Below are positions 8,477 through 38,301 of a stretch of 45,492 nucleotides of DNA, piece after piece. The translations under genes and the position numbers were made by a program. The stretch's first letter is position 1; every line of letters begins with the position of its first letter. The notes under the pieces were generated by a model. The model saw only the letters and a list, made by a program, of their open reading frames with translations. It was not told the origin of the DNA and made no database searches. The DNA is from a bacterium. Lineage in GTDB: Bacteria; Margulisbacteria; WOR-1; O2-12-FULL-45-9; XYB2-FULL-48-7. The stretch is from NCBI GenBank assembly GCA_043812655.1, contig JBDRLW010000001.1, positions 1 to 45,492 of the forward strand, in the 5' to 3' direction.

Positions 8477-8510
8477 AGGGACCTTTTTATTATATCACAC
8501 AAACTTAAAA

Positions 8511-8597
8511 CGGAGGGAGGAGGATTCGAACCCCCGGTACGCTTTCGCGCACAGTAGTTTTCAAGACTACCGCCATCAACCACTCGGCCATCCCTCC
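8511..8597 (-). tRNA. tRNA-Ser(TGA)
   Basis: Anticodon arm GTAGT-CTTGAAA-ACTAC with a long variable arm. Confidence 0.95.
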
Positions 8598-8609
8598 ACA
8601 AAAGAATCT

Positions 8610-8849
8610 TCAACCCAAAATACTCTTAATGAATGCTCTACCTTTTCCAGACTTCAAATATTTCTCTCTTTCCCTTGCCTTCAAACTATTGTCAACTTTT
8701 TCTTGGTAAACAATTAAATATGGTTTATAAGCTTTTATTGATTTTACTTTTCCGCTATTATGTCTCATCAACCTATCTTTAATGTCTCTTGTAAAACCAA
8801 TATATAATCTACCGATCAATTCACTTTTTAAAACATAAACCGTATACAT
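8610..8849 (-). CDS. Small stand-alone GIY-YIG nuclease
   Basis: MYTVYVLKS...LYIGFT...RLMRHNSG...AREREKYLKSGKGR. Start taken at ATG 8849. Confidence 0.92.
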   Translation of the reverse strand: MYTVYVLKSELIGRLYIGFTRDIKDRLMRHNSGKVKSIKAYKPYLIVYQEKVDNSLKAREREKYLKSGKGRAFIKSILG

Positions 8850-8853
8850 TCTC

Positions 8854-8923
8854 ACTACCGCCATTTTACCCGCCGCAGGAGGGTTTACCCGCCTTTGGCG
8901 GGCAACCACTCGGCCATCCCTCC
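8854..8923 (-). pseudogene. Duplicated 5' fragment of tRNA-Ser(TGA) interrupted by a 38-nt palindromic insertion
   Basis: 8854-8864 equals 8566-8576 and 8903-8923 equals 8577-8597; the insert 8865-8902 is two 19-nt units. Confidence 0.9.
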
Positions 8924-8934
8924 CAACAAAAAAA

Positions 8935-8993
8935 CGGAGGAGGCGAGATTTGAACTCGCGCGCCGCTTTCGCGACCTAACGGTTTAGCAAACC
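8935..8993 (-). repeat. att site: displaced 3' part of tRNA-Ser(GCT)
   Basis: 59-nt direct repeat of 15271-15329 with 3 mismatches, starting at the anticodon arm. Confidence 0.95.
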
Positions 8994-9132
8994 CCTATAC
9001 CCTCCAACCATTCACCAAGATTGATTATACGAAATTTCCTGATGTAAAGCAAAATATGTTTTTTATTGACGCTAAGAATTTGAGCGACATTTAGTTAGGA
9101 ACCTGGTTGATTTAAGATGGTTTGAGTTGATT

Positions 9133-9151
9133 TAGTTAGACAATCGTTAGA
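9133..9151 (+). repeat. Putative integrase arm-type site TAGTTAGACAATCGTTAGA
   Basis: Exact 19-nt copy at 15166-15184; contains tandem GTTAGA; both copies lie inside the element ends. Confidence 0.75.
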
Positions 9152-9185
9152 TGGGAGAAGAGCTGATTTTCCTATCACATATGTT

Positions 9186-9857
9186 TTAGGGAGATGAGTA
9201 TTTCGTCTTGGCAAAGTCTATTATTCCAATGCACACAACTTTATTAGTTGTTTTACTAATTGCTCCATACACATTGTTAGAATAAAACCATAATTCATTT
9301 TGCCCATTGCTGGACTCAGCTGTTGCCGTCGGAGTTCCCCAAAGGTTTAGAGCTATAGATTTAAGATCCCCATTGGAAACACCAAGAACATTTCCAGAAT
9401 TTGTATTATTAAAGATAAAAATAGTTTTATACTCCCCTCCCTCATCAACAAATGCAACCCCATAGGTTAAAAAGATCGTATATAAATAGGTGTACCCCAA
9501 AATACTTGTGGATCCCTTTATAGTTGAACTCGCCTCAATTGATGTAGTAAAAGGATTGCCTAAAACACTTTTAACCTGTGTTATGTTGTTCCCAAGTGAG
9601 ACCCCTAAATAAGAAGTATAAACCGATGTAGGCGCTAATGTAGTCGTGGTAACAGGGATTGTAGTGGTGGTTGTTGTAGTGGAGCCACCCCCAAGCGTCG
9701 TGGTAGTGGTCGTCGTCGTCGTTGTGGTGGTGGTTTCAATACTAAAATTAGGTAAGGTCGTTGTGCTGGTTGTTGAAGGATTGTTGTTTGTTGCACATCC
9801 AACCAGCATAATCAAGGATAAAAACAGTATCATAAACAGTATCTTTCTTATATTAAT
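9186..9857 (-). CDS. Lipoprotein with a Thr-rich stalk and duplicated G(V/L)xLG...V...GxP domain
   Basis: Lipobox LVGC, poly-Thr tracts, GVSLGNNITQVKSVLGNP and GVSNGDLKSIALNLWGTP. The ORF-track start is ATG 9833; ATT 9857 fits the RBS better. Confidence 0.75.
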   Translation of the reverse strand: MNIRKILFMILFLSLIMLVGCATNNNPSTTSTTTLPNFSIETTTTTTTTTTTTTLGGGSTTTTTTTIPVTTTTLAPTSVYTSYLGVSLGNNITQVKSVLGNPFTTSIEASSTIKGSTSILGYTYLYTIFLTYGVAFVDEGGEYKTIFIFNNTNSGNVLGVSNGDLKSIALNLWGTPTATAESSNGQNELWFYSNNVYGAISKTTNKVVCIGIIDFAKTKYSSP

Positions 9858-10032
9858 ATTTTAGCCCCCTATTTGACACTAGTCTTCTCCACTTCTCCTC
9901 TATATCTAATCATTTTCAAAATAATTTCAAGGGAAACGAGATTAAAATAGAGGTTAAAAGTCTTCACTGGTTTAAATGAGACAATTCATTTAATGGTTAA
10001 ATCAATAATAGAACCCATATTGCGATTTGTTA

Positions 10033-10578
10033 TCAATAAACATAAAGTGTGCCATCTAAAACATATAGTGCAACAACCTTACTTAACCAAGCAGAAGAAG
10101 TTGAAATTTTATATGCAATATTTCTGCTATTATAAACCCATAATTCTCCAGTTGGATAACCCGTCATAATTGTTTTGCATTCGGGAGTCCCATACCTACT
10201 CGTGACTTCACCTGATAGATCTAAAAAATTAATGCTCAAGAGAGAATCTCCAATTCTATTTTGTCCAATTAAAATTAGTTTTCCTGTCGATGTTAAAAAT
10301 GTTGCCGCCCTATTCGTTCTCGTTGTTGAGCCTTCTTGAGTCGTCCAAGAATAATTAGTCTGCAACCCACTTACACTAGTTGAGCTCGGGGTTCCCCAAG
10401 CAGACGTTACTTGGCTAGTAGTCATACCTAATGTTAGCCCACCAAATGATGTTTCTTTTGGAATAGTTGTAGTTGTTGTTGAGGTTGTCGTAGTTGTCAT
10501 TTGAGCAGTTTGACATCCACTTGTAATAATAAGCAGTAAAAAGAAAAGAGAAGAAGCAATAATTGCAGTTTTCTTCAT
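10033..10578 (-). CDS. Lipoprotein with a Thr-rich stalk, similar in architecture to 9186-9857
   Basis: MKK signal, lipobox TSGC, poly-Thr, GLTLGMTTSQVTSAWGTP and VTSRYGTP; GGGGGAG RBS. Confidence 0.8.
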   Translation of the reverse strand: MKKTAIIASSLFFLLLIITSGCQTAQMTTTTTSTTTTTIPKETSFGGLTLGMTTSQVTSAWGTPSSTSVSGLQTNYSWTTQEGSTTRTNRAATFLTSTGKLILIGQNRIGDSLLSINFLDLSGEVTSRYGTPECKTIMTGYPTGELWVYNSRNIAYKISTSSAWLSKVVALYVLDGTLYVY

Positions 10579-10652
10579 TTTTATTCACTCCCCCTTATAG
10601 GATACTATCGGTTGTTTACCTAATATTAACACGCGGATACGATAGTGTCTAT

Positions 10653-10904
10653 ATGAAAGCGCAATCCTTTCCTAAGCCAAACAAAAAGCTACTCATTTCT
10701 CTTGGTAAAGAAATAAGTGGGAGGCGCAAAGCCAAAAGACTAACGGTTGAAGAATTTGCTGAGTTATGTGATCTGCATAGTAAGTACATTCAGACGATTG
10801 AAGCAGGAAAAAGAAACATCTCTATCACGGTCTTTTTAAGATTGTCGAACGCCTTGAGGATATCACCTCTTAAATTACTTAAAAGCGTCTTGTCTAACGG
10901 CTAA
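10653..10904 (+). CDS. XRE-family HTH regulator
   Basis: LGKEISGRRKAKRLTVEEFAELCDLHSKYIQTIEAGKRNISI. Start moved to ATG 10653. Confidence 0.88.
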   Translation: MKAQSFPKPNKKLLISLGKEISGRRKAKRLTVEEFAELCDLHSKYIQTIEAGKRNISITVFLRLSNALRISPLKLLKSVLSNG

Positions 10905-10937
10905 GCTTGTCTTCGCCTCACTACGGGACAGCAGTAG

Positions 10938-10966
10938 TTGACGCAATGATTAACAATTGTTATAAT
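10938..10966 (+). promoter_or_regulatory. Sigma-70 promoter of the element's replication/packaging operon
   Basis: TTGACG-N17-TATAAT. Confidence 0.8.
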
Positions 10967-11038
10967 TCTTCCAGACCAGTAAATATTTAATTGAATCCAG
11001 GGGAGACTAGTACCCCTGTCCGCATCGGACGAGGAAAT

Positions 11039-11093
11039 AGCCGATTTATCTAAACAGAAATAATTGTTTGGGTAAATCGGTTTTTTTGTTTTT
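11039..11093 (+). terminator. Intrinsic terminator/attenuator in the operon leader
   Basis: AGCCGATTTATCTAAACA / TGTTTGGGTAAATCGGTT stem followed by a T-tract, upstream of the first RBS. Confidence 0.75.
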
Positions 11094-11105
11094 AAGGGGA
11101 CAAAC

Positions 11106-11360
11106 ATGAATGAATATTTAACAAGAGATTTACATGAAGCGGCGTTTTTATGTGCTACAAAACAAGTTCTTCTTCGTCTTGAAGATGAAGGCAAGTTTTA
11201 TTCTTTCGTATTTTCAAACAAACAATCGTGCAAATCCCTATCTGATGACTTCTGGTTTGGCAAGGCAACGATCAATGCTAAGGTTTTTGTTGATGCACTT
11301 AACTTTTTAAAAGATTTACTCTTTTCTCAACGAAATAAAAAGGATCTTACTAATGCCTAA
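11106..11360 (+). CDS. DUF5659-like small phage/element protein
   Basis: YLTRDLHEAAFL...FSFVF-type pattern recalled for this family; AAGGGGA RBS. Confidence 0.6.
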   Translation: MNEYLTRDLHEAAFLCATKQVLLRLEDEGKFYSFVFSNKQSCKSLSDDFWFGKATINAKVFVDALNFLKDLLFSQRNKKDLTNA

Positions 11361-11574
11361 TATTGTTGGCTATCGATGTTCTCGTTGTGCGGAAATAACA
11401 GCTTGCCATGAAGTTAGTTATGAAGAAAAACATGCGGGTGATTGGGAAGAAAGATTGGCCTGCTTATGTGAATATGATCTGAAACAATTGCGAATCAGGG
11501 AAAGTTTTTATGGTGATGTTTGTATAATCAGCGTCAATCCCCTTCCTAAAATTATGTCGGTATGGGTAAACTGA
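11353..11574 (+). CDS. Small Cys-containing hypothetical protein
   Basis: CSRC...C...CLC; overlaps both neighbours as in a coupled operon. Confidence 0.55.
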   Translation: MPNIVGYRCSRCAEITACHEVSYEEKHAGDWEERLACLCEYDLKQLRIRESFYGDVCIISVNPLPKIMSVWVN

Positions 11575-12725
11575 AAATGAAAGATTTTTTTCTTGATTAT
11601 TTGAAGTTTGCAAACGAAATAACCGATGCACCAGATGAGTTTCATCTATTTGTTAGCTATGTAATTGCCGCAACAGTTATTGGGAAAAATGTATACTTCC
11701 GTTTTGGTGATAACATTATTTTTCCAAATTTATGGCTGGTTTTGATTGCCCCTAGTTCGAGCTACCGAAAATCAACAGCCCTGGGGATTGGAGCTGGACT
11801 TCTAAGAAAGGTTGATCCAAATCTTGTTTATCCGGCTGAATTTACTCAAGAACGAATATTAGAAGTATTACAAAACAACTCTGTAGGCACCTTCTTATTC
11901 TTTGAGTTTAAATCAATGATTAATCAAATGATGAAAGACTATAATGCAGGGCTTAAAAGCTTCTTTGTTGAGATCTATGACTGCCCCGAGCTTTACTGTA
12001 GAACAACAAAAGCAGGCAGTTATACGTTGGAGAGGCCTTGTCCGTCGATTTTAAGCGCCACTACCCTTGATTGGTTGGTTGTCTCCGCTTCAAATAAAGA
12101 AGACCTTCAAAGCGGTTTTTTTGCAAGATTCTTATTCGTTCCTGTGACTAGCAAGCAAAAAGACCTTCCAATCCCTCCCCCAGCTGACCTAGAGAAAAAA
12201 GAAAGCCTTATCGCTGGCTTGAAAGAAATGAGAGGGATAAATGGCGAGATGAAATTAAGTACTGAAGCTAAAAGAGAATTCGAGGAGTTTTATAAAAAAC
12301 ATTCTGCAGTTAAAAAAGCTAGTGAATTTGCAGGGATATATTCAAGGCTCCAGACTTATACATTAAAGTTCGCAATGATTCATTCGGTAGTAATAGCTGA
12401 TACGTTGACCATTCAAGAACCATCCATGAGGGAAGCCATCAATCTTGTTAATTGGTTGTCAAATCAGTTGGACGATTTACTTGATAGGGACATAAGTACC
12501 TCAAAATATGATGCCAATAAGAAAAAAATACTTAAATTAATCAGGGATGGTAAGTATAAAAGAACCGATTTACTTAATTATGGCAATATGCCAAAGAGAG
12601 AGCTCGATGACGTATTGGGGACATTGATTGAAGGCCAGATTTTATCAGTATCAATGGAAAATATTCAAGGCTCGTCAAAGAAAACTACCATGTACAACAT
12701 TATAAATAATAAGAATATTAAGTAA
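11562..12725 (+). CDS. DUF3987/YfjI-like putative replication protein with a degenerate P-loop
   Basis: FPNLWLVLIAPSSSYRKSTAL, PSILSATT, SGFFARFLFV and a C-terminal wHTH-like region. Confidence 0.75.
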   Translation: MGKLKMKDFFLDYLKFANEITDAPDEFHLFVSYVIAATVIGKNVYFRFGDNIIFPNLWLVLIAPSSSYRKSTALGIGAGLLRKVDPNLVYPAEFTQERILEVLQNNSVGTFLFFEFKSMINQMMKDYNAGLKSFFVEIYDCPELYCRTTKAGSYTLERPCPSILSATTLDWLVVSASNKEDLQSGFFARFLFVPVTSKQKDLPIPPPADLEKKESLIAGLKEMRGINGEMKLSTEAKREFEEFYKKHSAVKKASEFAGIYSRLQTYTLKFAMIHSVVIADTLTIQEPSMREAINLVNWLSNQLDDLLDRDISTSKYDANKKKILKLIRDGKYKRTDLLNYGNMPKRELDDVLGTLIEGQILSVSMENIQGSSKKTTMYNIINNKNIK

Positions 12726-12823
12726 ATAAGTAATTAAGAAGGAGACAGTAGTTAAAGAGGGAAGCCCCTTACAGACTGCCCCCTCTAAAAAAAGTTACTT
12801 AATTACTTAATGGAGGGTTAATT

Positions 12824-13267
12824 ATGCCAAAAGTAAGATCTGATGATGGGTTGTCATTCAAAGAGCGAGCATTTGCGAAGGAATTCTCAAAATCACTGAA
12901 TGCTACGCAATCTGCCAAGAAGGTGTATAAGGTTGGCAATAGCCACAGTGCGAACGTGCTGGGCTCGAAGGTACTAAAAAGGTTGGTAAAAGTTGGTGGT
13001 TCTCAAGGAATTAGTGGTTTTACCGAGGTTTTAAAAGAAAAATTAACGCCCGACTGGATATTAGGAAACTTGGTTAAATTAGCAGGAAATTCCCGAAGAG
13101 ATGCTGACAAAATAAGGGCGCTAGAGCTATTGGGCAAGTTTAGCGAGTTATCGTTATGGCGAGATTATCAAGTGCAGGAAGAAATTCAATACACCCCTGA
13201 AACAGAGGCAGATTTGGATGCTGAGTATATGAAGCTAATAGAAGAAAAAAAATCGATAAAACAATAA
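12824..13267 (+). CDS. Terminase small subunit-like protein
   Basis: LSFKERAFAKEFSKSLNATQSAKKVY...SANVLGSKVL N-terminal HTH and DKIRALELLGK, typical of G1P-type TerS. Confidence 0.75.
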   Translation: MPKVRSDDGLSFKERAFAKEFSKSLNATQSAKKVYKVGNSHSANVLGSKVLKRLVKVGGSQGISGFTEVLKEKLTPDWILGNLVKLAGNSRRDADKIRALELLGKFSELSLWRDYQVQEEIQYTPETEADLDAEYMKLIEEKKSIKQ

Positions 13268-13295
13268 ATGACAAGTTAATAAATTATTAATTGTA

Positions 13296-13496
13296 ATGGA
13301 AGAAAAAATCTTAAATAAAGAAGAGCTTGCTGATTTCTTAAGAGTGCCACTTAAAACGGTAAATTATTTGCTTTATTCAAAGCAGGTTCCACGATTTCGT
13401 TGCGGCAGGGAATACCGCTTTTTGATGTCCGAGATAATGCGCTGGATAAGAGGCAGAATGGATGGAAAATGGTCAACATTGTTAGACAATAGCTAG
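13296..13496 (+). CDS. Excisionase-like HTH_17 protein
   Basis: ILNKEELADFLRVPLKTV...VPRFRCGREYRF...IMRWI. Confidence 0.85.
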   Translation: MEEKILNKEELADFLRVPLKTVNYLLYSKQVPRFRCGREYRFLMSEIMRWIRGRMDGKWSTLLDNS

Positions 13497-13720
13497 AAAG
13501 TAAAACATGATAGATATAATTTGGCTAATTTTACGCGAATTAATAGAAGGGATAAAACGGTTTAGATAACCGATGGGTATACAAAGGTATCCGTCAATAG
13601 GAGGACAAAGACTAAATGGCCGGTGGGGAGGGAACCCCCAAACCATACACAAAATACACCTACCCTATCCGCCCGCAAATTTTTATGGGTTTTTCAAATT
13701 CAGAAATTTTGGAGGGAAAA

Positions 13721-13930
13721 CTATTTTATAAGTTCTTCGATCCGAACTTTGAGGGCTTTTGCGATTGAATGAATGGTGGAAAGCCGGGGCTCTTTACGCT
13801 CTTTGGCATAAAGGATATTTTGGAGGGTGGAAAGCGAAATGTTTGCTTTTCTGGCGAGAGCCGAAAAAGTTAGCTTATTTTGCTTGCAATATTTGGCGAT
13901 ATTCTTGGCTGTCGTAGCGTGATAGTCCAT
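13721..13930 (-). CDS. XRE-family HTH repressor divergent from the integrase
   Basis: LTFSALARKANISLSTLQNI...EPRLSTIHSIAKALKVRIEELI. Start moved to ATG 13930. Confidence 0.88.
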   Translation of the reverse strand: MDYHATTAKNIAKYCKQNKLTFSALARKANISLSTLQNILYAKERKEPRLSTIHSIAKALKVRIEELIK

Positions 13931-13937
13931 TGGGCTT

Positions 13938-13987
13938 ATTATAGCAATATACTCCCACTTGACTATACTCCCAACTGGGCGTAGTAT
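13938..13987. promoter_or_regulatory. Divergent promoters with a candidate operator
   Basis: TTGACT-N17-TAGTAT on + (13959-13987); TGCTATAAT on -; TATACTCCCA twice; imperfect palindrome at 13966-13983. Confidence 0.65.
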
Positions 13988-14075
13988 GTTTATCAATAAT
14001 TGTTAGGGCTGTAGAACCATAATCGGGCGGGCTTAACCTAACAGTTTTCCCGCCCTTATTTTATGGAGGTAAAAA

Positions 14076-15263
14076 ATGGATGATTATTCGGCGAGGATAT
14101 GGGAAACAGAAAAAAACGGGATACTTTATGCCCTGTTTAGGCTAAACGGCAAACTCAAGTGGGTTAAAATTGGCGAGAAGCGGTTTTTATCACGGGAGGT
14201 AATAAACAAAAAGAAAAAAGAGATCATGGAGAAACTGGCAAGGGGAGAATATATTGATAAAAAGATTTACTTTGAGAAGATGGCAGAGGAATTTCTTAAC
14301 TACACGAAAGAAAATCGAACAGAAAGAACCCACGAAACTATCATTGGTCATATTAAAAAGCACTTGCGATATTTCCGGGGATATCTTTTAACAAAAATTA
14401 ACCTGGCCTTGATTGAAGGCTACGTTGAACATCGGAGAAGGGAAAACCCTGAACTATCCGACAAAACCGTTATAAACGAGCTTTTTACCCTATCTGCGGT
14501 CTTTAAGCGGGCGATTAGACTAGGCTACCTTAAAGAGAACCCAGTCAAGAACCTCGAAATGCCAAAATATACCCGCCCGGAAATGAAATGCTTCACACCA
14601 AAAGAAATGGAGCTGATCTTTGCAAATTGCAGTAAATACTTGCGCCCGATCCTCATGTTAGGGATAACAACAGGATTGCGCCATTCTGAAATCTGCAATA
14701 TTAAATGGGATAATGTAGACCTTGAGGCGGGGATAATCAAAATTGTGTGTGATGAGACCTTCAAGACCAAAAACAAAAAGAATAAGCTAGCAATAATTGT
14801 CCCACAGTTAAGAGGAGAGCTTGAATACTTGAAAGAATGCTGGGTTGATTACATGAACGATAATATAATGCCCCGGCAACCGCACCAGATGGTTTACGTT
14901 TTTTGCCATAATAACGGTAGACCGATTAAGTCTTTTGCCCAGTCATTTGAGAAGCTGATGAAGAAGCTCTGTATAGAAAAAGCGTCCCCTCACACCATGA
15001 GACATACCTTCATTACCTACCACGAACGCTTTGGCGATCCCTACCTAACGCAGAAGATGGCAGGACACAGCGACCAGAGGCAAACACAGGGGTATTATCA
15101 TGTCCAGTTAGAAAGAATGAAAGAGAGCATGGAACCGATAAAAACCTTAATAAATTCGTGCGTGATAGTTAGACAATCGTTAGAAAACACCCCTACCCCG
15201 ACGGTTTATTCGTTAGAAAAAGTTAATCAAGAGAGTCCAAATAACTCCATTTTGTCGTCATAA
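14076..15263 (+). CDS. Tyrosine recombinase (phage-type integrase)
   Basis: TGLRHSE, HTMRHTF and AGHSDQRQTQGYYH catalytic motifs; GGAGG RBS; ends next to the tRNA. Confidence 0.96.
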   Translation: MDDYSARIWETEKNGILYALFRLNGKLKWVKIGEKRFLSREVINKKKKEIMEKLARGEYIDKKIYFEKMAEEFLNYTKENRTERTHETIIGHIKKHLRYFRGYLLTKINLALIEGYVEHRRRENPELSDKTVINELFTLSAVFKRAIRLGYLKENPVKNLEMPKYTRPEMKCFTPKEMELIFANCSKYLRPILMLGITTGLRHSEICNIKWDNVDLEAGIIKIVCDETFKTKNKKNKLAIIVPQLRGELEYLKECWVDYMNDNIMPRQPHQMVYVFCHNNGRPIKSFAQSFEKLMKKLCIEKASPHTMRHTFITYHERFGDPYLTQKMAGHSDQRQTQGYYHVQLERMKESMEPIKTLINSCVIVRQSLENTPTPTVYSLEKVNQESPNNSILSS

Positions 15264-15270
15264 AAAGAAA

Positions 15271-15357
15271 CGGAGGAGGAGAGATTCGAACTCTCGCGCC
15301 GCTTTCGCGACCTAACGGTTTAGCAAACCGCCCCCTTAACCACTTGGGTACTCCTCC
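15271..15357 (-). tRNA. tRNA-Ser(GCT), integration target
   Basis: Anticodon arm GCGGT-TTGCTAA-ACCGT with a long variable arm. Confidence 0.95.
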
Positions 15358-15368
15358 GCATATTATTA

Positions 15369-28637: not shown

Positions 28638-29336
28638 TTACTTCTTTTCGGGTTTAACTGCCGCGGGAATAGCGCCTGGAGCTGATTTCTCTTTAACTTT
28701 TTCATCGGCCACCGCGTCAGCCGCCACATCGGACGGGACTTCAGATGGTGTCGGGATCGGCGCCTCTACAACTTCTTCCTTGGTCGGCGGTGCGCAGGTC
28801 GCGATCATCTCCTGTGGTTCTGAAAGTATCTTTACTTTCGCGTCTTTGGCCAGATCAGAAACGTGGAATGACTCGTTAATATTAAGCGGGGTTACATCAA
28901 TGATAAACTTATCAGGAATCGATGTCGGCAAACATTCGACTTCAACTTCTCTAAGGCCATGGACCAAAATACCGCCGCCTTCTTTAACGCCGATCGGTAT
29001 ACCAGTTAATTCGACGTGAACCTTAGTCCTGATCGCCTCATCCATAGCAATATTGCGAAAATCAACATGTAAAAGCTCATCGGTTAAAGGATCGATCTGC
29101 ACCGCTTGAGTTAAAACCGCCAAGCTTTTTCCCCCAATTTTTAGGGTGACTATAGCGTTCATTCCCGCTTCCGATTTAAGAATAGTTTTAACAAAAGTCT
29201 TGTTATCGATCGAGACAGGAAAAGAGGTGATCTTTTTTCCATACACAACAGCTGGGACAAAACCCGCTTGCCTTAATTTTTTGAGGTCTTTACGGACTTC
29301 TATTCGTTCTTTCGCTTCTAATTCGATCTTTTCCAT
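28638..29336 (-). CDS. rplY: 50S ribosomal protein L25/Ctc
   Basis: LRQAGFVPAVVYG, LLHVDF, GVKEGG and IPDKFIIDV. Confidence 0.96.
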   Translation of the reverse strand: MEKIELEAKERIEVRKDLKKLRQAGFVPAVVYGKKITSFPVSIDNKTFVKTILKSEAGMNAIVTLKIGGKSLAVLTQAVQIDPLTDELLHVDFRNIAMDEAIRTKVHVELTGIPIGVKEGGGILVHGLREVEVECLPTSIPDKFIIDVTPLNINESFHVSDLAKDAKVKILSEPQEMIATCAPPTKEEVVEAPIPTPSEVPSDVAADAVADEKVKEKSAPGAIPAAVKPEKK

Positions 29337-29387
29337 AACAGTATTATTTTATCAGATTTTCGGTTGAGTGTCAAAAGAGATAAAGTA

Positions 29388-29627
29388 TTAAGCCAATTTT
29401 GAATACAATGTCTCTGGTGCAATATCCTGACCACCAGGCCAGCAAATGGTCCCCAAGTCTTTATTAATACTAAATTTCTTAAAATAATTAATATCTTTAA
29501 AGTCGGCAAAAACACCTTTATTGTCTAAATAATTACTAAAATCAACTATCCCGGTTTTTCCGTCTTCAAAGACTAATGTAATTTTATAGTCTTTAAGGTA
29601 TTTAGCGTTTATTACATCGTATAGCAT
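29388..29627 (-). CDS. DUF2442 protein (putative antitoxin)
   Basis: YKITLVFEDG...GTICWPGGQDIAPETLY. Start moved to ATG 29627 after AAGGAG. Confidence 0.85.
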   Translation of the reverse strand: MLYDVINAKYLKDYKITLVFEDGKTGIVDFSNYLDNKGVFADFKDINYFKKFSINKDLGTICWPGGQDIAPETLYSKLA

Positions 29628-29638
29628 TAGATTTCTCC

Positions 29639-29899
29639 TTATTGCAACGGTAGTATGGGAAATAATGGCTTTTGTTGTTTGGCCAGTTCCCACTCTTTAA
29701 TTAGTTCGTCTTTATGAAGAGCCGCCCATTCAATGACCAACCCAAGAACCCTTGGCGGCAATCTCCCAACTTTAACCGTCAACTCATTTATGTCAATTGT
29801 CACCTTTTGATCTTCATATCGGGCATGAAAATGCGGTGGGTTATGATCATCATAAAAGACCGCAATTACTATCCCAAAAAACCTGCATATCTCTGGCAT
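29639..29899 (-). CDS. DUF4160 protein (putative toxin)
   Basis: MPEICRFFGIVI...DHNPPHFHARY...EWAALHKDELIKEW. Confidence 0.88.
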   Translation of the reverse strand: MPEICRFFGIVIAVFYDDHNPPHFHARYEDQKVTIDINELTVKVGRLPPRVLGLVIEWAALHKDELIKEWELAKQQKPLFPILPLQ

Positions 29900-29914
29900 A
29901 ATTAATTATACCAC

Positions 29915-29957
29915 AAAAAAACCGGCCTCTTAGAAAATTCCCTCTAAAAGGCCGGTT
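29915..29957 (-). terminator. Terminator-like hairpin upstream of the DUF4160 gene
   Basis: AACCGGCC-TCTTAGA...TCTAAA-AGGCCGGTT with an adjacent A-run (T-tract on -). Confidence 0.55.
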
Positions 29958-30029
29958 AATAAGGGCATAAGTTGTTTAAATCAGTTTTATGTTATTAATA
30001 CATGAACAAAAATACACAAACAGAAAAAA

Positions 30030-30057
30030 TGAAATTTTTCCCAAAACCTGCCGATAT
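30030..30057 (+). promoter_or_regulatory. Sigma-28-like promoter
   Basis: GAAA-N15-GCCGATAT, compared with the FliA consensus TAAA-N15-GCCGATAA. Confidence 0.7.
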
Positions 30058-30109
30058 ATATACGTCTAAGGCTTGCTGAGTCACAATGATGACATAGGAG
30101 GAAAAGAAA

Positions 30110-31027
30110 ATGAGTTTATCGGTAGGGTTAGTTTATTTAGCGAGAACAATGGTAAGGCAAACTCCCAATGGGCTTGCTAATGAGGAAGATGAAGGGAAAA
30201 AAACAGCCAGCGAAGCTTTTAATCCACCACAATTCAACGAATTTGAAGGGACTATTCGAGATTTTTCTGTTTGCCACTATGAGTACAATCAATTTCAAAG
30301 AATGGAAAAATGTGTTTCTATAAAAGCAGAGATAAAAAATCGTTATGAAGAAGGATTAAATCGATTTAAAATCGGAGAAGCATTCTTGGCTAGTGGGGAT
30401 AATATTGAAGCTAATCTCAAGTTTAGGGAAGCAGATCGTTTTTTTAATTATGCTCAAGCTTTATTTAGAACAAATCAAGATGGAACTCGCGACTATTCGG
30501 TCAGTTCTCCGCAAATAAATCATGCAAAATTAGCCGCGCAAGCAAAATTACCAAACAACTATCCTCATTTACCTGGGTTATCTTTTGTTACTGGAGGAAC
30601 CCCTTTTGATTTATGCGGGGAGCTAAGAGCGCAAAATATGGAATATTATCAAAAAAAAGAGCTTGGGTTAATTTGCGATAATCTTGAAGGCAGCGAAAAA
30701 GCCCCGGCAAATAGGATGCTGTATCAATTAATTCCTTCAGCTACGGAGATTTTTAGGCGTTATTCTACATCAATGCCAGATCACGAACTCACCTTTGTCT
30801 TTAAAGTATCAGTAAAAAGTGACGGCTCTGCAGAAGTAAAAGTTGTTCCGAGTGAAGATGAAATTAGTAATTTGGATGAAGGTTATAAAGAAAAGTTGTC
30901 AACTCGTTTTGAACATTTGATGATAAAAATAAAAGAAAATATGGACTTCGGCCCTACGCCTACAAACCTTAATTTCTCATTGACTTTTATTAAATCAGAT
31001 ACAACAATACAGGTTCTTCAGCAATAA
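30110..31027 (+). CDS. Orphan hypothetical protein
   Basis: 305-aa ORF with AGGAGG RBS; no recognised motifs. Confidence 0.7.
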   Translation: MSLSVGLVYLARTMVRQTPNGLANEEDEGKKTASEAFNPPQFNEFEGTIRDFSVCHYEYNQFQRMEKCVSIKAEIKNRYEEGLNRFKIGEAFLASGDNIEANLKFREADRFFNYAQALFRTNQDGTRDYSVSSPQINHAKLAAQAKLPNNYPHLPGLSFVTGGTPFDLCGELRAQNMEYYQKKELGLICDNLEGSEKAPANRMLYQLIPSATEIFRRYSTSMPDHELTFVFKVSVKSDGSAEVKVVPSEDEISNLDEGYKEKLSTRFEHLMIKIKENMDFGPTPTNLNFSLTFIKSDTTIQVLQQ

Positions 31028-31028
31028 T

Positions 31029-32402
31029 CTAAAAAGAGGCATATTTGACCTTTGTCGTTGTTCCTGTCCCTTCATAATAGCTTAAATACTTTTTCCCGTT
31101 AGTGCCGATGGCTAACGAGGGATAACCGCTGCTCTGTTTTACAACCGTCATAAATAGCCAAGCTCCCGTTACATTTGTCGCAATTTTTAAAGCGCCTGAA
31201 GCATCAACATATGTAACATATAATTTCCCATTAGCATCGACTTTAATACAAGGATTTGTACTTACACTATTTTTTGATCCAACATTAGCTAAAGTTGATA
31301 CAACCCAAGCGCCTGAAGTATTTGTAGCATATCTTAAAGCGGCGTTTTCTCTATCATCATAGACAATGTGGATCTTGCCATTACCATCAATTGCTATAGA
31401 ATGATCAATATCTGTAACGACAGAATCTACAATATATTCAACTGCGGCAACTTCTTGGGTAATCCAAGTGCCAGAGGCATTGGTCGCATATTTTATTTTT
31501 TTCCCAGCTTCGCCATAGTAAGCGAAATGAAGTTTATTATTAGTATCAATAACTAGTGAGGTTTTTTGGCTACGTTCCTTATCAACAACAAACCCTTCCC
31601 ATGAACCATTCGCATTAGTGTAATATTTTAAATAGCCGGTGCCATTAGCCTGAAATCCGACATATGTTTTATCGTTATTATCAACCCCTATGGCGCTATA
31701 GCGTCCAAATTCCCCAGCATTATAATCACCAATTATAGATTTAACCCAACTTCCAGTAGAATTATCAGAATATCTTAACCCTGGGGTTGGATTCGCCGCC
31801 ACACTAAATCCACCAGAATAACTCACTTGGGGTTTATTGTTGCTATCTATTCCCAAAGCAACTCCATAACCGCCAACTCCATGGACAGAACCACCCGCTT
31901 CAATCGTTGAAACTCCCCAAGAGCCAGAAATATTAGTCGCATATTTGGGCCCTTGAATGTTGTCATTATAATAAGCAATGTGAGCCTTATTATTGCTATC
32001 AGTCCCGATCGCCGTATCGTCTGCTGATGACAAAGCACCAACATTTGCATCAATTGTTGTAACCTCGTTTAACACCACGTTTACAGTTGAAGAATAAGCA
32101 AGCTTATAAGTAGTGTTAGCTGTTTGTTGGCTGGTTGTCAAAGCAACCGTCACCCCATCAGCACCTAAGCTAGCGGCGGTTACTTCCAGGCTAGTTGTTT
32201 CATCAAGCGACTTTACTGCGTAATTACTTTTATTGGTAGCCGAAGAGTCGGGTGTTCCATTAAATAAAACAGCAAGCGATGTTGACGAATTTGTGGTAAC
32301 TGAGACAATAGACGGAGCAGTCGTTTGTGAAAAAAGCCCGCAACCAAAGATTCCCAGCCCAGCCACTAACAAAAATCCTAAAACAATATATTTTTTAAAC
32401 AT
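31029..32402 (-). CDS. Surface lipoprotein with an Ig-like N-domain and beta-propeller-like repeats
   Basis: Lipobox IFGC; about six repeats of IxxDxNxKxHxxY...LxYATNxSGxW. Confidence 0.8.
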   Translation of the reverse strand: MFKKYIVLGFLLVAGLGIFGCGLFSQTTAPSIVSVTTNSSTSLAVLFNGTPDSSATNKSNYAVKSLDETTSLEVTAASLGADGVTVALTTSQQTANTTYKLAYSSTVNVVLNEVTTIDANVGALSSADDTAIGTDSNNKAHIAYYNDNIQGPKYATNISGSWGVSTIEAGGSVHGVGGYGVALGIDSNNKPQVSYSGGFSVAANPTPGLRYSDNSTGSWVKSIIGDYNAGEFGRYSAIGVDNNDKTYVGFQANGTGYLKYYTNANGSWEGFVVDKERSQKTSLVIDTNNKLHFAYYGEAGKKIKYATNASGTWITQEVAAVEYIVDSVVTDIDHSIAIDGNGKIHIVYDDRENAALRYATNTSGAWVVSTLANVGSKNSVSTNPCIKVDANGKLYVTYVDASGALKIATNVTGAWLFMTVVKQSSGYPSLAIGTNGKKYLSYYEGTGTTTKVKYASF

Positions 32403-36538: not shown

Positions 36539-37126
36539 CTATTCAAACAAAATAATTGATTCAAATCCTTTGGCTGTTAAATTAGCCTTTTGGGCATTAG
36601 CTTCACTTCTAGTCTTAAACGCACCAACTTGAACTCGCCAGCCGAGCGAAGTCTTTTTAAGATAAGTATCAATCCCTTTTTCATTAAGCTGCGCTGCAAG
36701 CTTCTCCGCATTGGCCTTATAGATAAACAATCCAGCCTGAACTTTGTAAGGGTAAGCACTTCTGCTTGATCTAGCTATTCTCTTGCGCTTAGAAGATCGC
36801 TCACCCTTAGCCATTTTCTTATCGCACGCGGCCTGCTTCTCTTCCAGATAACTTTTTTGCAGCGCCTTTATCGCCGGCGGCGGTTCAGGGATCGGCACGA
36901 CTATTTTCCGTTCAAAATCTCCACCCGCCGGAAAAAGGATTCTCCTTCCCAGCTGGAAGCTCAACCAAAAACTGCCAACAACAATCAAAGCTAAACCGAC
37001 CAGCACCAAAGCATTTTTAAACTTGGCAAAACCGTTACCAGGCTTTTGCTCTTCTGTCTCTGGTGTCTCCGGGTTTTGGACTTCTAATTCTTTATCTTTT
37101 AACTCGTTTAGCTCTTCGTTGGCCAT
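36539..37126 (-). CDS. SPOR-domain membrane protein
   Basis: One TM segment; YKVQAGLF...NAEKL and [14 protein letters not shown]. Confidence 0.88.
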
Positions 37127-37275
37127 TAGGATGTTATTCTACTATGTATCTTCCATAATCGTCAACTAATATTATTAGTGAAATTTATTTTTATATCAAA
37201 CGATTAAAGTATAAGCGAAAGATTCAAAACATAATAATTTTAGTTCAACATGATCATAGACTTAAAAGGAATTTA

Positions 37276-38301
37276 ATGATGACCATTACAAATCCAATTG
37301 GCCCAATTCGGCAAAGACTCGCGGCTAGTAAACTTAATTATACAAACATTCCTCCAGGCACTGTTTTCCCTAAAAAGCTGACGGTCCAAAAAAAAATCGC
37401 CGACGGCGGCATGTCAAGTGTTTATTTAGCTCATGACACAAGCCAGCGACCAGTCGTAATTAAAGTAACAAACAATGGTGAGATTTTTCATGTCCAGGCT
37501 TTAAGACAAGAAGTCGAAGTGCTATCTCTTTTCACTAGTCGCCCGATCTCCAAAATATTTAATCGTTTCCTTAATCGGAGAGCACCATTTCCTGACCTTT
37601 ATGATTCAAACGTTAACGATGAAAAAGCTTTTGGCGGTTTACGCTACGTCGCCTTAGAATATATTCCCGGTGAAACATTGAATAACATTATTGCCGGCCA
37701 TGAAAATATCCCATTGCACAAAGCGATTGAAATTGCGATGCAGCTTTGTGGTTTACAAGCATTACATGAACAAAACTATGTCCATCGCGATATTAAGCCG
37801 GAAAATATAATCATCAACAATGAAACAGGCGCCCACATTATCGATTTTGGTGTTAGCTGCCGCACCGGACACCGAGATAAAAGGGACTTAGTTGTCGGGA
37901 CGCCTTCTTACATGTCCTCTGAACTTTCATTGGCTAGATTCGCGGCGCCAAGATCAGATATTTATTCTCTTGGCTTGGTCCTTTATGAAATGATCAGTGG
38001 TGATAATCCTATGCGGCATGACAACCATCAGCAAGCCTTAAATAATCAGCAAGAAAAACCTTTACCGAAACTAGAGATCACTGAACGAATTAGATCGGAC
38101 AAAAGAGATGAATTCATCAATACAGTAGGAGAACTCCAAACATTACTCAATGATTTAATCGGAAAAATGACCGAAAAACAACGCAGTAAACGCTTTAAAA
38201 GCCTCAAGCCTGTTGAGACTCTTTTGCTCCGTGCGCATGTTTTAGCCTTAACCTTTAAACATTACGAAAAGCGGATAAAACAATCTTTTCCCCACGAATA
38301 A
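37276..38301 (+). CDS. Hanks-type Ser/Thr protein kinase, soluble
   Basis: IADGGMSSVYLA, VVIK, HRDIKPEN, DFG, GTPSYMSSE and SDIYSLG; no TM or sensor domain seen. Confidence 0.93.
   Translation: MMTITNPIGPIRQRLAASKLNYTNIPPGTVFPKKLTVQKKIADGGMSSVYLAHDTSQRPVVIKVTNNGEIFHVQALRQEVEVLSLFTSRPISKIFNRFLNRRAPFPDLYDSNVNDEKAFGGLRYVALEYIPGETLNNIIAGHENIPLHKAIEIAMQLCGLQALHEQNYVHRDIKPENIIINNETGAHIIDFGVSCRTGHRDKRDLVVGTPSYMSSELSLARFAAPRSDIYSLGLVLYEMISGDNPMRHDNHQQALNNQQEKPLPKLEITERIRSDKRDEFINTVGELQTLLNDLIGKMTEKQRSKRFKSLKPVETLLLRAHVLALTFKHYEKRIKQSFPHE

Follow-up and report, generated by a model that had tools for sequence, protein, structure and literature searches.

A probable phage satellite with inverted operon polarity, resembling phage-inducible chromosomal islands, in a genome of the Margulisbacteria

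How does an element of little more than 6 kb, which encodes a terminase small subunit (TerS) and no recognisable phage shell, move between cells? The question is raised by a locus in a 45,492-nucleotide (nt) stretch of DNA (hereafter the window; contig JBDRLW010000001.1 of assembly GCA_043812655.1, lineage WOR-1 of the Margulisbacteria), which is contig C1 of the source genome, G000 (1.62 Mb, 46 contigs, 93% complete); the other G labels used below denote related genomes and the L labels the loci or contigs that were compared. A sequence-only reading had proposed that this locus, bounded by attachment (att) repeats, is a satellite akin to the phage-inducible chromosomal islands (PICIs) and possibly of an undescribed family. 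In our judgement it is fairly probable that the element is a PICI-like phage satellite with inverted operon polarity, and it would probably spread in particles borrowed from phages, as would elements of similar build in related genomes. A family sharing the gene order was indeed found; the hijacking of a helper is deduced, and no helper, circular form or virome copy was found.

Judged from its ends, the element is a real, integrated unit with both att sites (Table 1). A direct repeat of 66 nt (8928-8993 and 15264-15329, 62/66 positions identical, spaced 6,336 bp) corresponds to the 3' half of tRNA-Ser(GCT), with the identity stopping at the anticodon loop. The repeats had been recognised earlier with a left start at 8935, which is corrected here to 8928. 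A second tRNA-Ser called by ARAGORN at 8934-9017 was rejected as a gene, being the attL fragment. The integration site adjoins a gene with a surface layer homology (SLH) domain, and the GC content within the element is 0.379 as against 0.453 genome-wide. Ten open reading frames (ORFs), all with open frames, account for 81% of the element, and no pseudogene or gene fragment was detected on their inspection. The genes are arranged as cargo - XRE - rep - ori - terS - xis - XRE - int, and by homology the parts for integration, excision and replication are present. Repeat comparison, Pfam and PHROGs recovered everything that had been described in the ~6.3 kb, namely the att repeats, integrase, XRE regulators, excisionase, TerS, DUF3987 protein and lipoproteins, including the position of xis after terS; the DUF5659 gene, the 73-amino-acid (aa) Cys-rich ORF, the iteron origin, the promoter-terminator leader and the three arm-type repeats are additions to that description. 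No match to an element gene was found at any of the nine syntenic loci with the SLH neighbour (12 relative loci were fetched); these loci belong to other genera and 7 of the 9 include tRNA-Ser(GCT).

Packaging into helper heads is proposed because TerS recurs in related elements, is swappable and conserved and lies straight after the origin, and because TerS occurs together with the large subunit (TerL) in close kin. The TerS of the element matches Pfam Terminase_2 at 27.1 bits (cut-off 26.1; residues 13-53) and phrog_51 of PHROGs (E 7.8e-10; residues 6-107), and its ESM Atlas features score 0.96 for TerS, with viral Terminase_2 clusters as neighbours. These three sources support the TerS assignment, for which the sequence-only reading had called for a fold check, Pfam just over its cut-off; a single-sequence structure model was poor (predicted local distance difference test, pLDDT, 54) and uninformative, with no match reaching E 0.001 in Foldseek, and no PDB sequence matched. 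As had been claimed, shell genes are lacking: Pfam and PHROGs recognised no capsid, portal, TerL or tail family among the ten element proteins, nor any lysis or capsid-morphogenesis gene, and no capsid, portal or TerL family was recognised among 54 further element proteins.

The gene preceding the origin encodes a helicase in which residues K70, E115, R189 and R262 are conserved and whose structure model (pLDDT 92) matches MCM subunits at E 3e-9. DUF3987 proteins have been described as superfamily 6 (SF6) helicases with a C-terminal winged helix, the primase often being fused or encoded just upstream (PMC4889955). The absence of a recognisable primase domain was confirmed and its supposed unusualness was not: among the 150 best Rep homologues, 114 likewise do not exceed 460 aa, and Rep is therefore not regarded as truncated. 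A single-sequence Rep query retrieved nothing from viral or genome contigs; a tight alignment of homologues was an effective query. The iteron cluster between rep and terS is the sole place in the genome with three or more copies in 120 nt, and the candidate origin folds with a z of -3.0. Origins of the Staphylococcus aureus pathogenicity islands (SaPIs) carry iterons right after rep, at least two per side in opposite directions, around an AT-rich centre (PMC9371898); since its opposed iterons directly follow rep, the candidate origin fits this layout except in its centre. Among eight other rep-terS intervals, iterons of their own, different type were found in 5-8 copies in G034, L150, L157 and L172 and in four copies in G059, with no clear array in G032, G026 and G064.

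Searches with Int, Xis and SpoVG in 65 genomes of the class and 146 genomes of the phylum identified 11 rep-bearing elements in the class genomes, G000 included. Left out of this count were Xis-like matches adjoining genes of restriction type (G064:C38, G032:C43, G021:C50), another island of G032, at tRNA-Tyr, phylum-level matches outside the class, and G095, which may be part of a prophage (TerL and a 553-aa protein of no assigned family, on the opposite strand). The usual order is cargo - XRE - SpoVG or DUF5659 - rep - slot - xis - XRE - integrase - tRNA, with the XRE-int module on opposed strands; serine recombinases are present in the G030, G052 and G062 elements and the order is looser in those of G031 and G041. 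Sizes bounded by att sites are 5,202 bp in G026 (tRNA-Lys), 7,250 bp in G032 (tRNA-Cys), 10,524 bp in G064 (tRNA-Asn), 12,607 bp in the phylum genome G127 (tRNA-Asp) and 6,598 bp in the metagenome locus L165, while the G034 and G059 elements measure at least 9.0 kb and at least 9.5 kb on an inferred joining of contig ends. In the islands of G031 and G041, SpoVG is accompanied by a protein without a PHROG family, which may be another replication initiator; it has 389 aa in G031 and is split into pieces in G041 (L244:9935-11104 and L241:9835-10847).

A library-supported TerS is present in 5 of the 11 elements (G000, G032, G034, G059 and G026, in the last of which DUF5681 occupies the slot and a phrog_51 match lies upstream). 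Ten slot proteins give no mutual BLASTP alignment except for the G062-G064 pair, and several unrelated types of rep occur among the elements; by this comparison the slot is kept while the gene in it is swapped. For TerS of G034 and L150, neither of which has a TerL between terS and xis, the ratio of nonsynonymous to synonymous substitution rates (dN/dS) is 0.088 at a dS of 0.70, with 0.065 for rep, and on this measure the sibling TerS is under purifying selection. The G059 element lies at the same tRNA as that of G000, with Int 62% and Xis 81% identical and both XREs and the arm motif shared, and carries prim-pol, TerS, TerL and RusA ahead of xis-XRE-int, with an assembly gap. L172 reads DUF5659-rep-TerS-like-TerL-xis-int-tRNA, and no left att was found in it. 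A TerS-like gene together with TerL, with no adjacent portal or capsid, was observed in G059 and two metagenome contigs (L032:3354-5557, L172:11378-13247, L160:2302-4405). A PHROG match of a G026 cargo protein to a 'minor tail protein' covers 124 of 2,001 positions and was set aside as a shared repeat domain of a lipoprotein.

Several observations weigh against the reading as a satellite. The Pfam match to TerS covers its N-terminal 41 residues alone and passes by 1 bit; one phage match to it is weak (E 0.08); no relative of it was found among 54 candidates, in the protein database, in IMG/VR or in the compared loci; and the dN/dS test concerns sibling TerS of another family. The slot holds an unannotated protein of 142-154 aa in 3 of the 11 elements and no such gene in another 3 (G031, G041 and G052, scored by eye from ORF lists). 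No primase domain or gene was recognised among the ten proteins by Pfam, PHROGs or NCBIfam, the centre of the candidate origin has 44% GC and is not AT-rich, and element-wide counts of promoters (15 vs 16.6 in shuffles) and terminators (7 vs 5.1) show no excess. Pfam gave no TerL or capsid match in the 93% complete G000, and the helper was not found. The sequence-only reading had also proposed looking for reads across an attP circle or an empty attB, and for a virome copy or a helper with a related TerS: three low-depth read runs yielded neither an attP nor an attB joint, IMG/VR and the viral contigs yielded neither copy nor helper, and from viral contigs came no copy of the element integrase and three distant Xis-like matches only. 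These runs contain 0.06-0.08 of the words, a depth too low to conclude on excision or expression; a few short read contigs match the element interior without differences, and one run is an RNA library from a second study.

Another bin of the same order, G021, contains phage packaging genes (TerS-TerL and capsid; L215 = G021:C34, L253 = G021:C21) related to the IMG/VR contig L068 (TerL 49%, capsid 26%); these genes speak for the satellite reading and provide a lead to phages of this lineage. The phage L068 has a separate Toprim primase and a DUF3987 protein with 40% identity to Rep, and a helper of this kind is plausible; its TerS is unrelated to that of the element (E 0.54), which also counts against the satellite. 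A query with the L068 portal gave no match in five genomes, in a search made without a positive control.

The element may instead be a self-replicating integrative island without specific packaging, its TerS-like protein being a DNA-binding regulator or a dominant-negative packaging poison, and it would then move by transduction (generalised or lateral), in vesicles or through the uptake of DNA, as proposed for cargo tycheposons. The xis-XRE-int and SpoVG-rep modules do occur in the TerS-less islands of G127, G114, G052, G041 and G031, yet where TerS is present, unrelated families of it recur right after the origin. Pfam matches the helix-turn-helix (HTH) part of TerS alone, whereas in G059 and L172 the slot is filled by a TerS-like gene and then TerL, which ties it to packaging. 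With the superinfection-immunity protein in the G059 cargo and the failure to find virome copies in its favour, and the lack of a relaxase match in G000 (one Pfam family searched) against it, the unpackaged island appears unlikely.

A deletion remnant of a DUF3987-helicase prophage that lost its primase, TerL, head, tail and lysis genes, with G059 as a less decayed stage, seems quite improbable, for although full phages with TerS-TerL-portal (L066-L068) encode the viral Rep homologues that are closest (37-40%), G059 shares the integration and regulation genes and has TerL and an assembly gap, and attL and attR differ at 4/66 positions so that the insertion may be old, the element shows no decayed gene, the compact order recurs in five siblings that are bounded by att sites and differ in integrase and tRNA, TerL in G059 and L172 is followed by (RusA-)xis-int-tRNA and no portal, the rep and TerS of G059 are unrelated to those of G000 and exclude it as parent, none of five carrier genomes has a portal or capsid Pfam match, and the sibling TerS is under purifying selection. 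The larger intact prophage that the sequence-only reading had named as a point to check was found neither at this site nor at the nine syntenic loci, and the same-tRNA sibling G059 is shell-less in its assembled parts.

Table 1. Features of the element and its target gene (window coordinates)
Feature	Position	Strand	Basis or remark
attL, displaced tRNA-Ser(GCT) 3' half	8928..8993	-	Repeat comparison
Outward promoter-like site near attL, possible driver of host tRNAs cut off downstream	9024..9052	-	-10 box and its spacing shared with the attL flank of G059, G032
Arm-type repeat, attL side	9133..9151	+	19-mer; same motif beside attL in G059, G032
Cargo lipoprotein A, 215 aa, Thr-rich linker	9186..9833	-	Weak BamE-like domain, E 0.054, below cut-off; lipobox read from sequence
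Cargo lipoprotein B, 181 aa	10033..10578	-	Weak BamE-like domain, E 0.004-0.01
XRE regulator 1, divergent from cargo	10653..10904	+	Pfam HTH_3
Near-consensus promoter (11/12), then terminator-like hairpin, before replication operon	10938..11090	+	Promoter scan and folding
DUF5659 protein, 84 aa	11106..11360	+	Pfam; SpoVG-family protein in same slot of sister elements
Cys-rich ORF, 73 aa, upstream of rep	11353..11574	+	G034 same-slot homologue 39% identical
Rep, stand-alone DUF3987 helicase, MCM-like AAA+ fold	11562..12725	+	Pfam 71 bits, cut-off 27
Candidate origin, two 7-nt iterons each side, opposite directions	12717..12811	.	Iteron scan
Terminase small subunit (Terminase_2 type), 147 aa	12824..13267	+	Pfam, PHROGs, ESM Atlas
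Excisionase-like HTH_17 protein (Xis)	13296..13496	+	Pfam, PHROGs; G059 copy 81% identical
Third arm-type repeat, over xis stop codon	13479..13497	+	16/19 identical
XRE regulator 2	13721..13930	-	Pfam HTH_26; ORF finder extends to 13996
Tyrosine integrase, 395 aa, reads toward attR	14076..15263	+	Pfam Phage_integrase
Arm-type repeat, attR side, within int 3' end	15166..15184	+	19-mer
attR, element-supplied 3' half restoring tRNA-Ser(GCT)	15264..15329	-	Repeat comparison and tRNA scan
Intact tRNA-Ser(GCT), target gene	15270..15358	-	tRNA scan

The integrase is 62% identical to that of G032 as well as that of G059, and residues R202, H306, R309, H331 and Y340, which we take to be catalytic, are invariant in the alignment. 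The integrase tree has long branches and 5 of its 13 forks are well supported; it backs a G000-G059-G032 clade and gives no support for a single origin of the element family. Within this clade the target is restored in three ways, by the 3' half of tRNA-Ser in G000, the 5' half of tRNA-Cys in G032 and a whole tRNA-Ser at both ends in G059 (L252:9310-9394, L032:7511-7600, L017:7599-7673 and 14885-14923), and a similar outward promoter is kept beside attL in all three; that of G000 is absent from the promoter-scan list.

The 19-mer repeat occurs in exactly two copies in the genome, one 140 nt inward from attL and the other 98 nt inward from attR, and is read as arm-type sites because it is placed as those of integrases are. 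A further copy at the xis stop was found in 6 of the 8 elements examined (by script in G000, G059, G026 and G064, by eye in G032 and G034) and not in the other two, G127 and G114; the fragment L150 likewise has one. These xis-stop repeats are of three different motifs that track the integrase, and of 281 19-mers from the attL flank a single one, the arm itself, matches near the xis stop. In KplE1, arm-type sites of IntS overlap the promoter region and act in integrase regulation (PMC2951348), which offers a precedent for a regulatory role of arm-type sites; those of KplE1 belong to attL and cover the int promoter, whereas the extra copy described here is 1.8 kb from the att core, at the stop codon of xis.

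XRE2 and int are transcribed away from each other, their promoter-like sites overlapping in between, and XRE2 is convergent with xis; the repressor earlier said to face the integrase is thus divergent from it. XRE2 has 69-aa homologues in G034 and G059 and a -10 box immediately upstream; its start is likely at 13930, and its mRNA is probably leaderless. XRE1 has copies 55-57% identical in the G059 and G062 elements. The leader folds with a z of -4.84, none of 200 shuffles being as stable, and the G059 leader has the same promoter-hairpin layout; a hairpin with a T run before the first gene was present, as judged by eye, in 6 of 14 leaders. Rfam has no family in the element, leader included, and the Cys-rich ORF gave no Pfam, PHROG or NCBIfam match. 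Lipoproteins A and B are paralogues (E 3e-5), and B has one homologue, at 38% identity; PADLOC gave no defence match for the cargo. Lipoproteins with a Thr-rich linker are cargo in the G026 and G030 elements too (L033:4835-5983, L243:2336-3142), and the cargo slot has a superinfection-immunity protein in G059 and a TM2 protein in G062.

If the element is a PICI-like satellite, its cycle might run as follows. At rest, XRE2 would keep int low through the overlapping divergent promoters, and the terminator after the strong promoter at 10938 would silence DUF5659-orf73-rep-terS-xis. Infection by a tailed pac-type phage would relieve the terminator block, and Xis, from the last gene of the operon, would together with Int excise a 6,336-bp circle, on which Rep would load at the origin with a primer supplied by host or helper. 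TerS would bind element DNA and recruit the TerL of the helper, and helper heads would be filled with element DNA, probably as concatemers; the lack of a capsid-size gene makes concatemer packaging likely, as in the PICMIs (phage-inducible chromosomal minimalist islands; PMC10803314). In a new cell, Int would insert the element in tRNA-Ser(GCT) and restore the tRNA. The lipoproteins may be envelope cargo, possibly for superinfection exclusion, and Int may use the xis-stop arm repeat to curb read-through into xre2 and int.

A more specific proposal is advanced tentatively and is rather doubtful at present: these elements may form an undescribed satellite family of uncultured bacteria, with the present element as its type member, resembling lambda pL in a terminator-gated operon (a gene like that of single-stranded-DNA-binding protein, rep, ori, packaging slot and xis) that runs into the integrase, with the arm site at the xis stop coupling excision to the operon and the slot freely exchanged (nothing, unrelated TerS, or TerS with TerL) even within the same tRNA and integrase clade. 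If true, a step between TerS-only satellites and those with their own terminase would be seen within one family, and induction would proceed by antitermination instead of Stl de-repression. The way in which satellites acquire control of packaging could be studied on the natural series within the family (no TerS, TerS only, TerS with TerL), and two small features, the leader terminator and the xis-stop arm site, are testable. Nearly all known satellites are from Proteobacteria and Firmicutes. If the elements hijack phages, genes for envelope and defence functions would be moved by PICI-type satellites also in this uncultured lineage, whose phages are barely known, and gene-order models would miss them.

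Other observations concern the surroundings. A small GIY-YIG gene (8610-8873) is flanked by tRNA-Ser(TGA) and by a second copy of the 5' end of that tRNA (window 8510-8925), this copy being broken by GC-rich hairpins at 8903-8925. All four GIY-YIG matches in G000 adjoin tRNA genes (the others at C30:57400-57900, C9:50990-51480 and C29:820-1260), and the C30 copy, at tRNA-Tyr, shows the same pattern of 5' fragment and hairpin. Other low-GC stretches of the window (0.36-0.39) are 29001-32000 and 37001-38000. A simple script found a short repeat array of 4-6 copies near position 4279 of C45 in G000, spaced like clustered regularly interspaced short palindromic repeats (CRISPR).

The PICI operon starts at the regulators beside int, whereas the replication-packaging operon of the element runs toward the integrase and ends in xis, and its int-side repressor is divergent from int and not from the operon. 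The likenesses to PICIs and SaPIs are the integrase, the HTH regulators, a helicase of self-loading type with an iteron origin right after it, a lone TerS after the origin, the lack of structural or lysis genes and the cargo at the far end; Rep2 of SaPIs is also an SF6 (MCM-like) helicase (PMC9371898). The regulation module consists of two XREs and one HTH_17 protein, that of the PICI core being an alpA, merR or stl homologue (de Sousa et al. 2023, PMC10085698). Further differences are the lack of a primase and of a capsid-morphogenesis gene (the latter absent too in type B, such as SaPIs), the origin centre, and the size, 6.3 kb against a median of 9.5 kb for 1,436 reported PICIs, more than 99.9% of which are in Proteobacteria or Firmicutes (PMC10085698). 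If the element works like a PICI, three or four of the five core components would be present in it (PMC10085698); it is not filed as a PICI proper because its gene order departs from the conserved int - regulators - pri/rep - terS and a primase was not recognised. Capsid-forming PICIs (cf-PICIs) have their own capsid, portal, TerL and head-tail connector genes, none of which was recognised in the element.

The small size had been thought unusual, and is that of the PICMIs of Vibrionaceae (~6 kb), which likewise have no capsid-remodelling genes and whose search model of integrase, PF12728 (HTH_17) and DUF3987 is present in full in the element (PMC10803314). PICMIs lie next to fis without terS, whereas the element lies in tRNA-Ser with TerS and two XREs and its DUF3987 protein is without a primase domain. 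No report of satellites with this layout or in this lineage was found in the literature covered, which excluded supplementary tables (with possible low-grade PICI listings) and most subscription papers. In the PICI-like tycheposons of Prochlorococcus (bioRxiv 10.1101/2020.12.28.424599), the host is of another phylum and the elements are reported to lack cargo, while the present element carries two lipoproteins and has no small serine recombinase. These tycheposons resemble the element in their tRNA-targeted tyrosine integrases, Xis, swappable replication modules and terS in a subset, and, by description, in that terS-bearing and terS-less elements form one gene pool (bioRxiv 10.1101/2020.12.28.424599).

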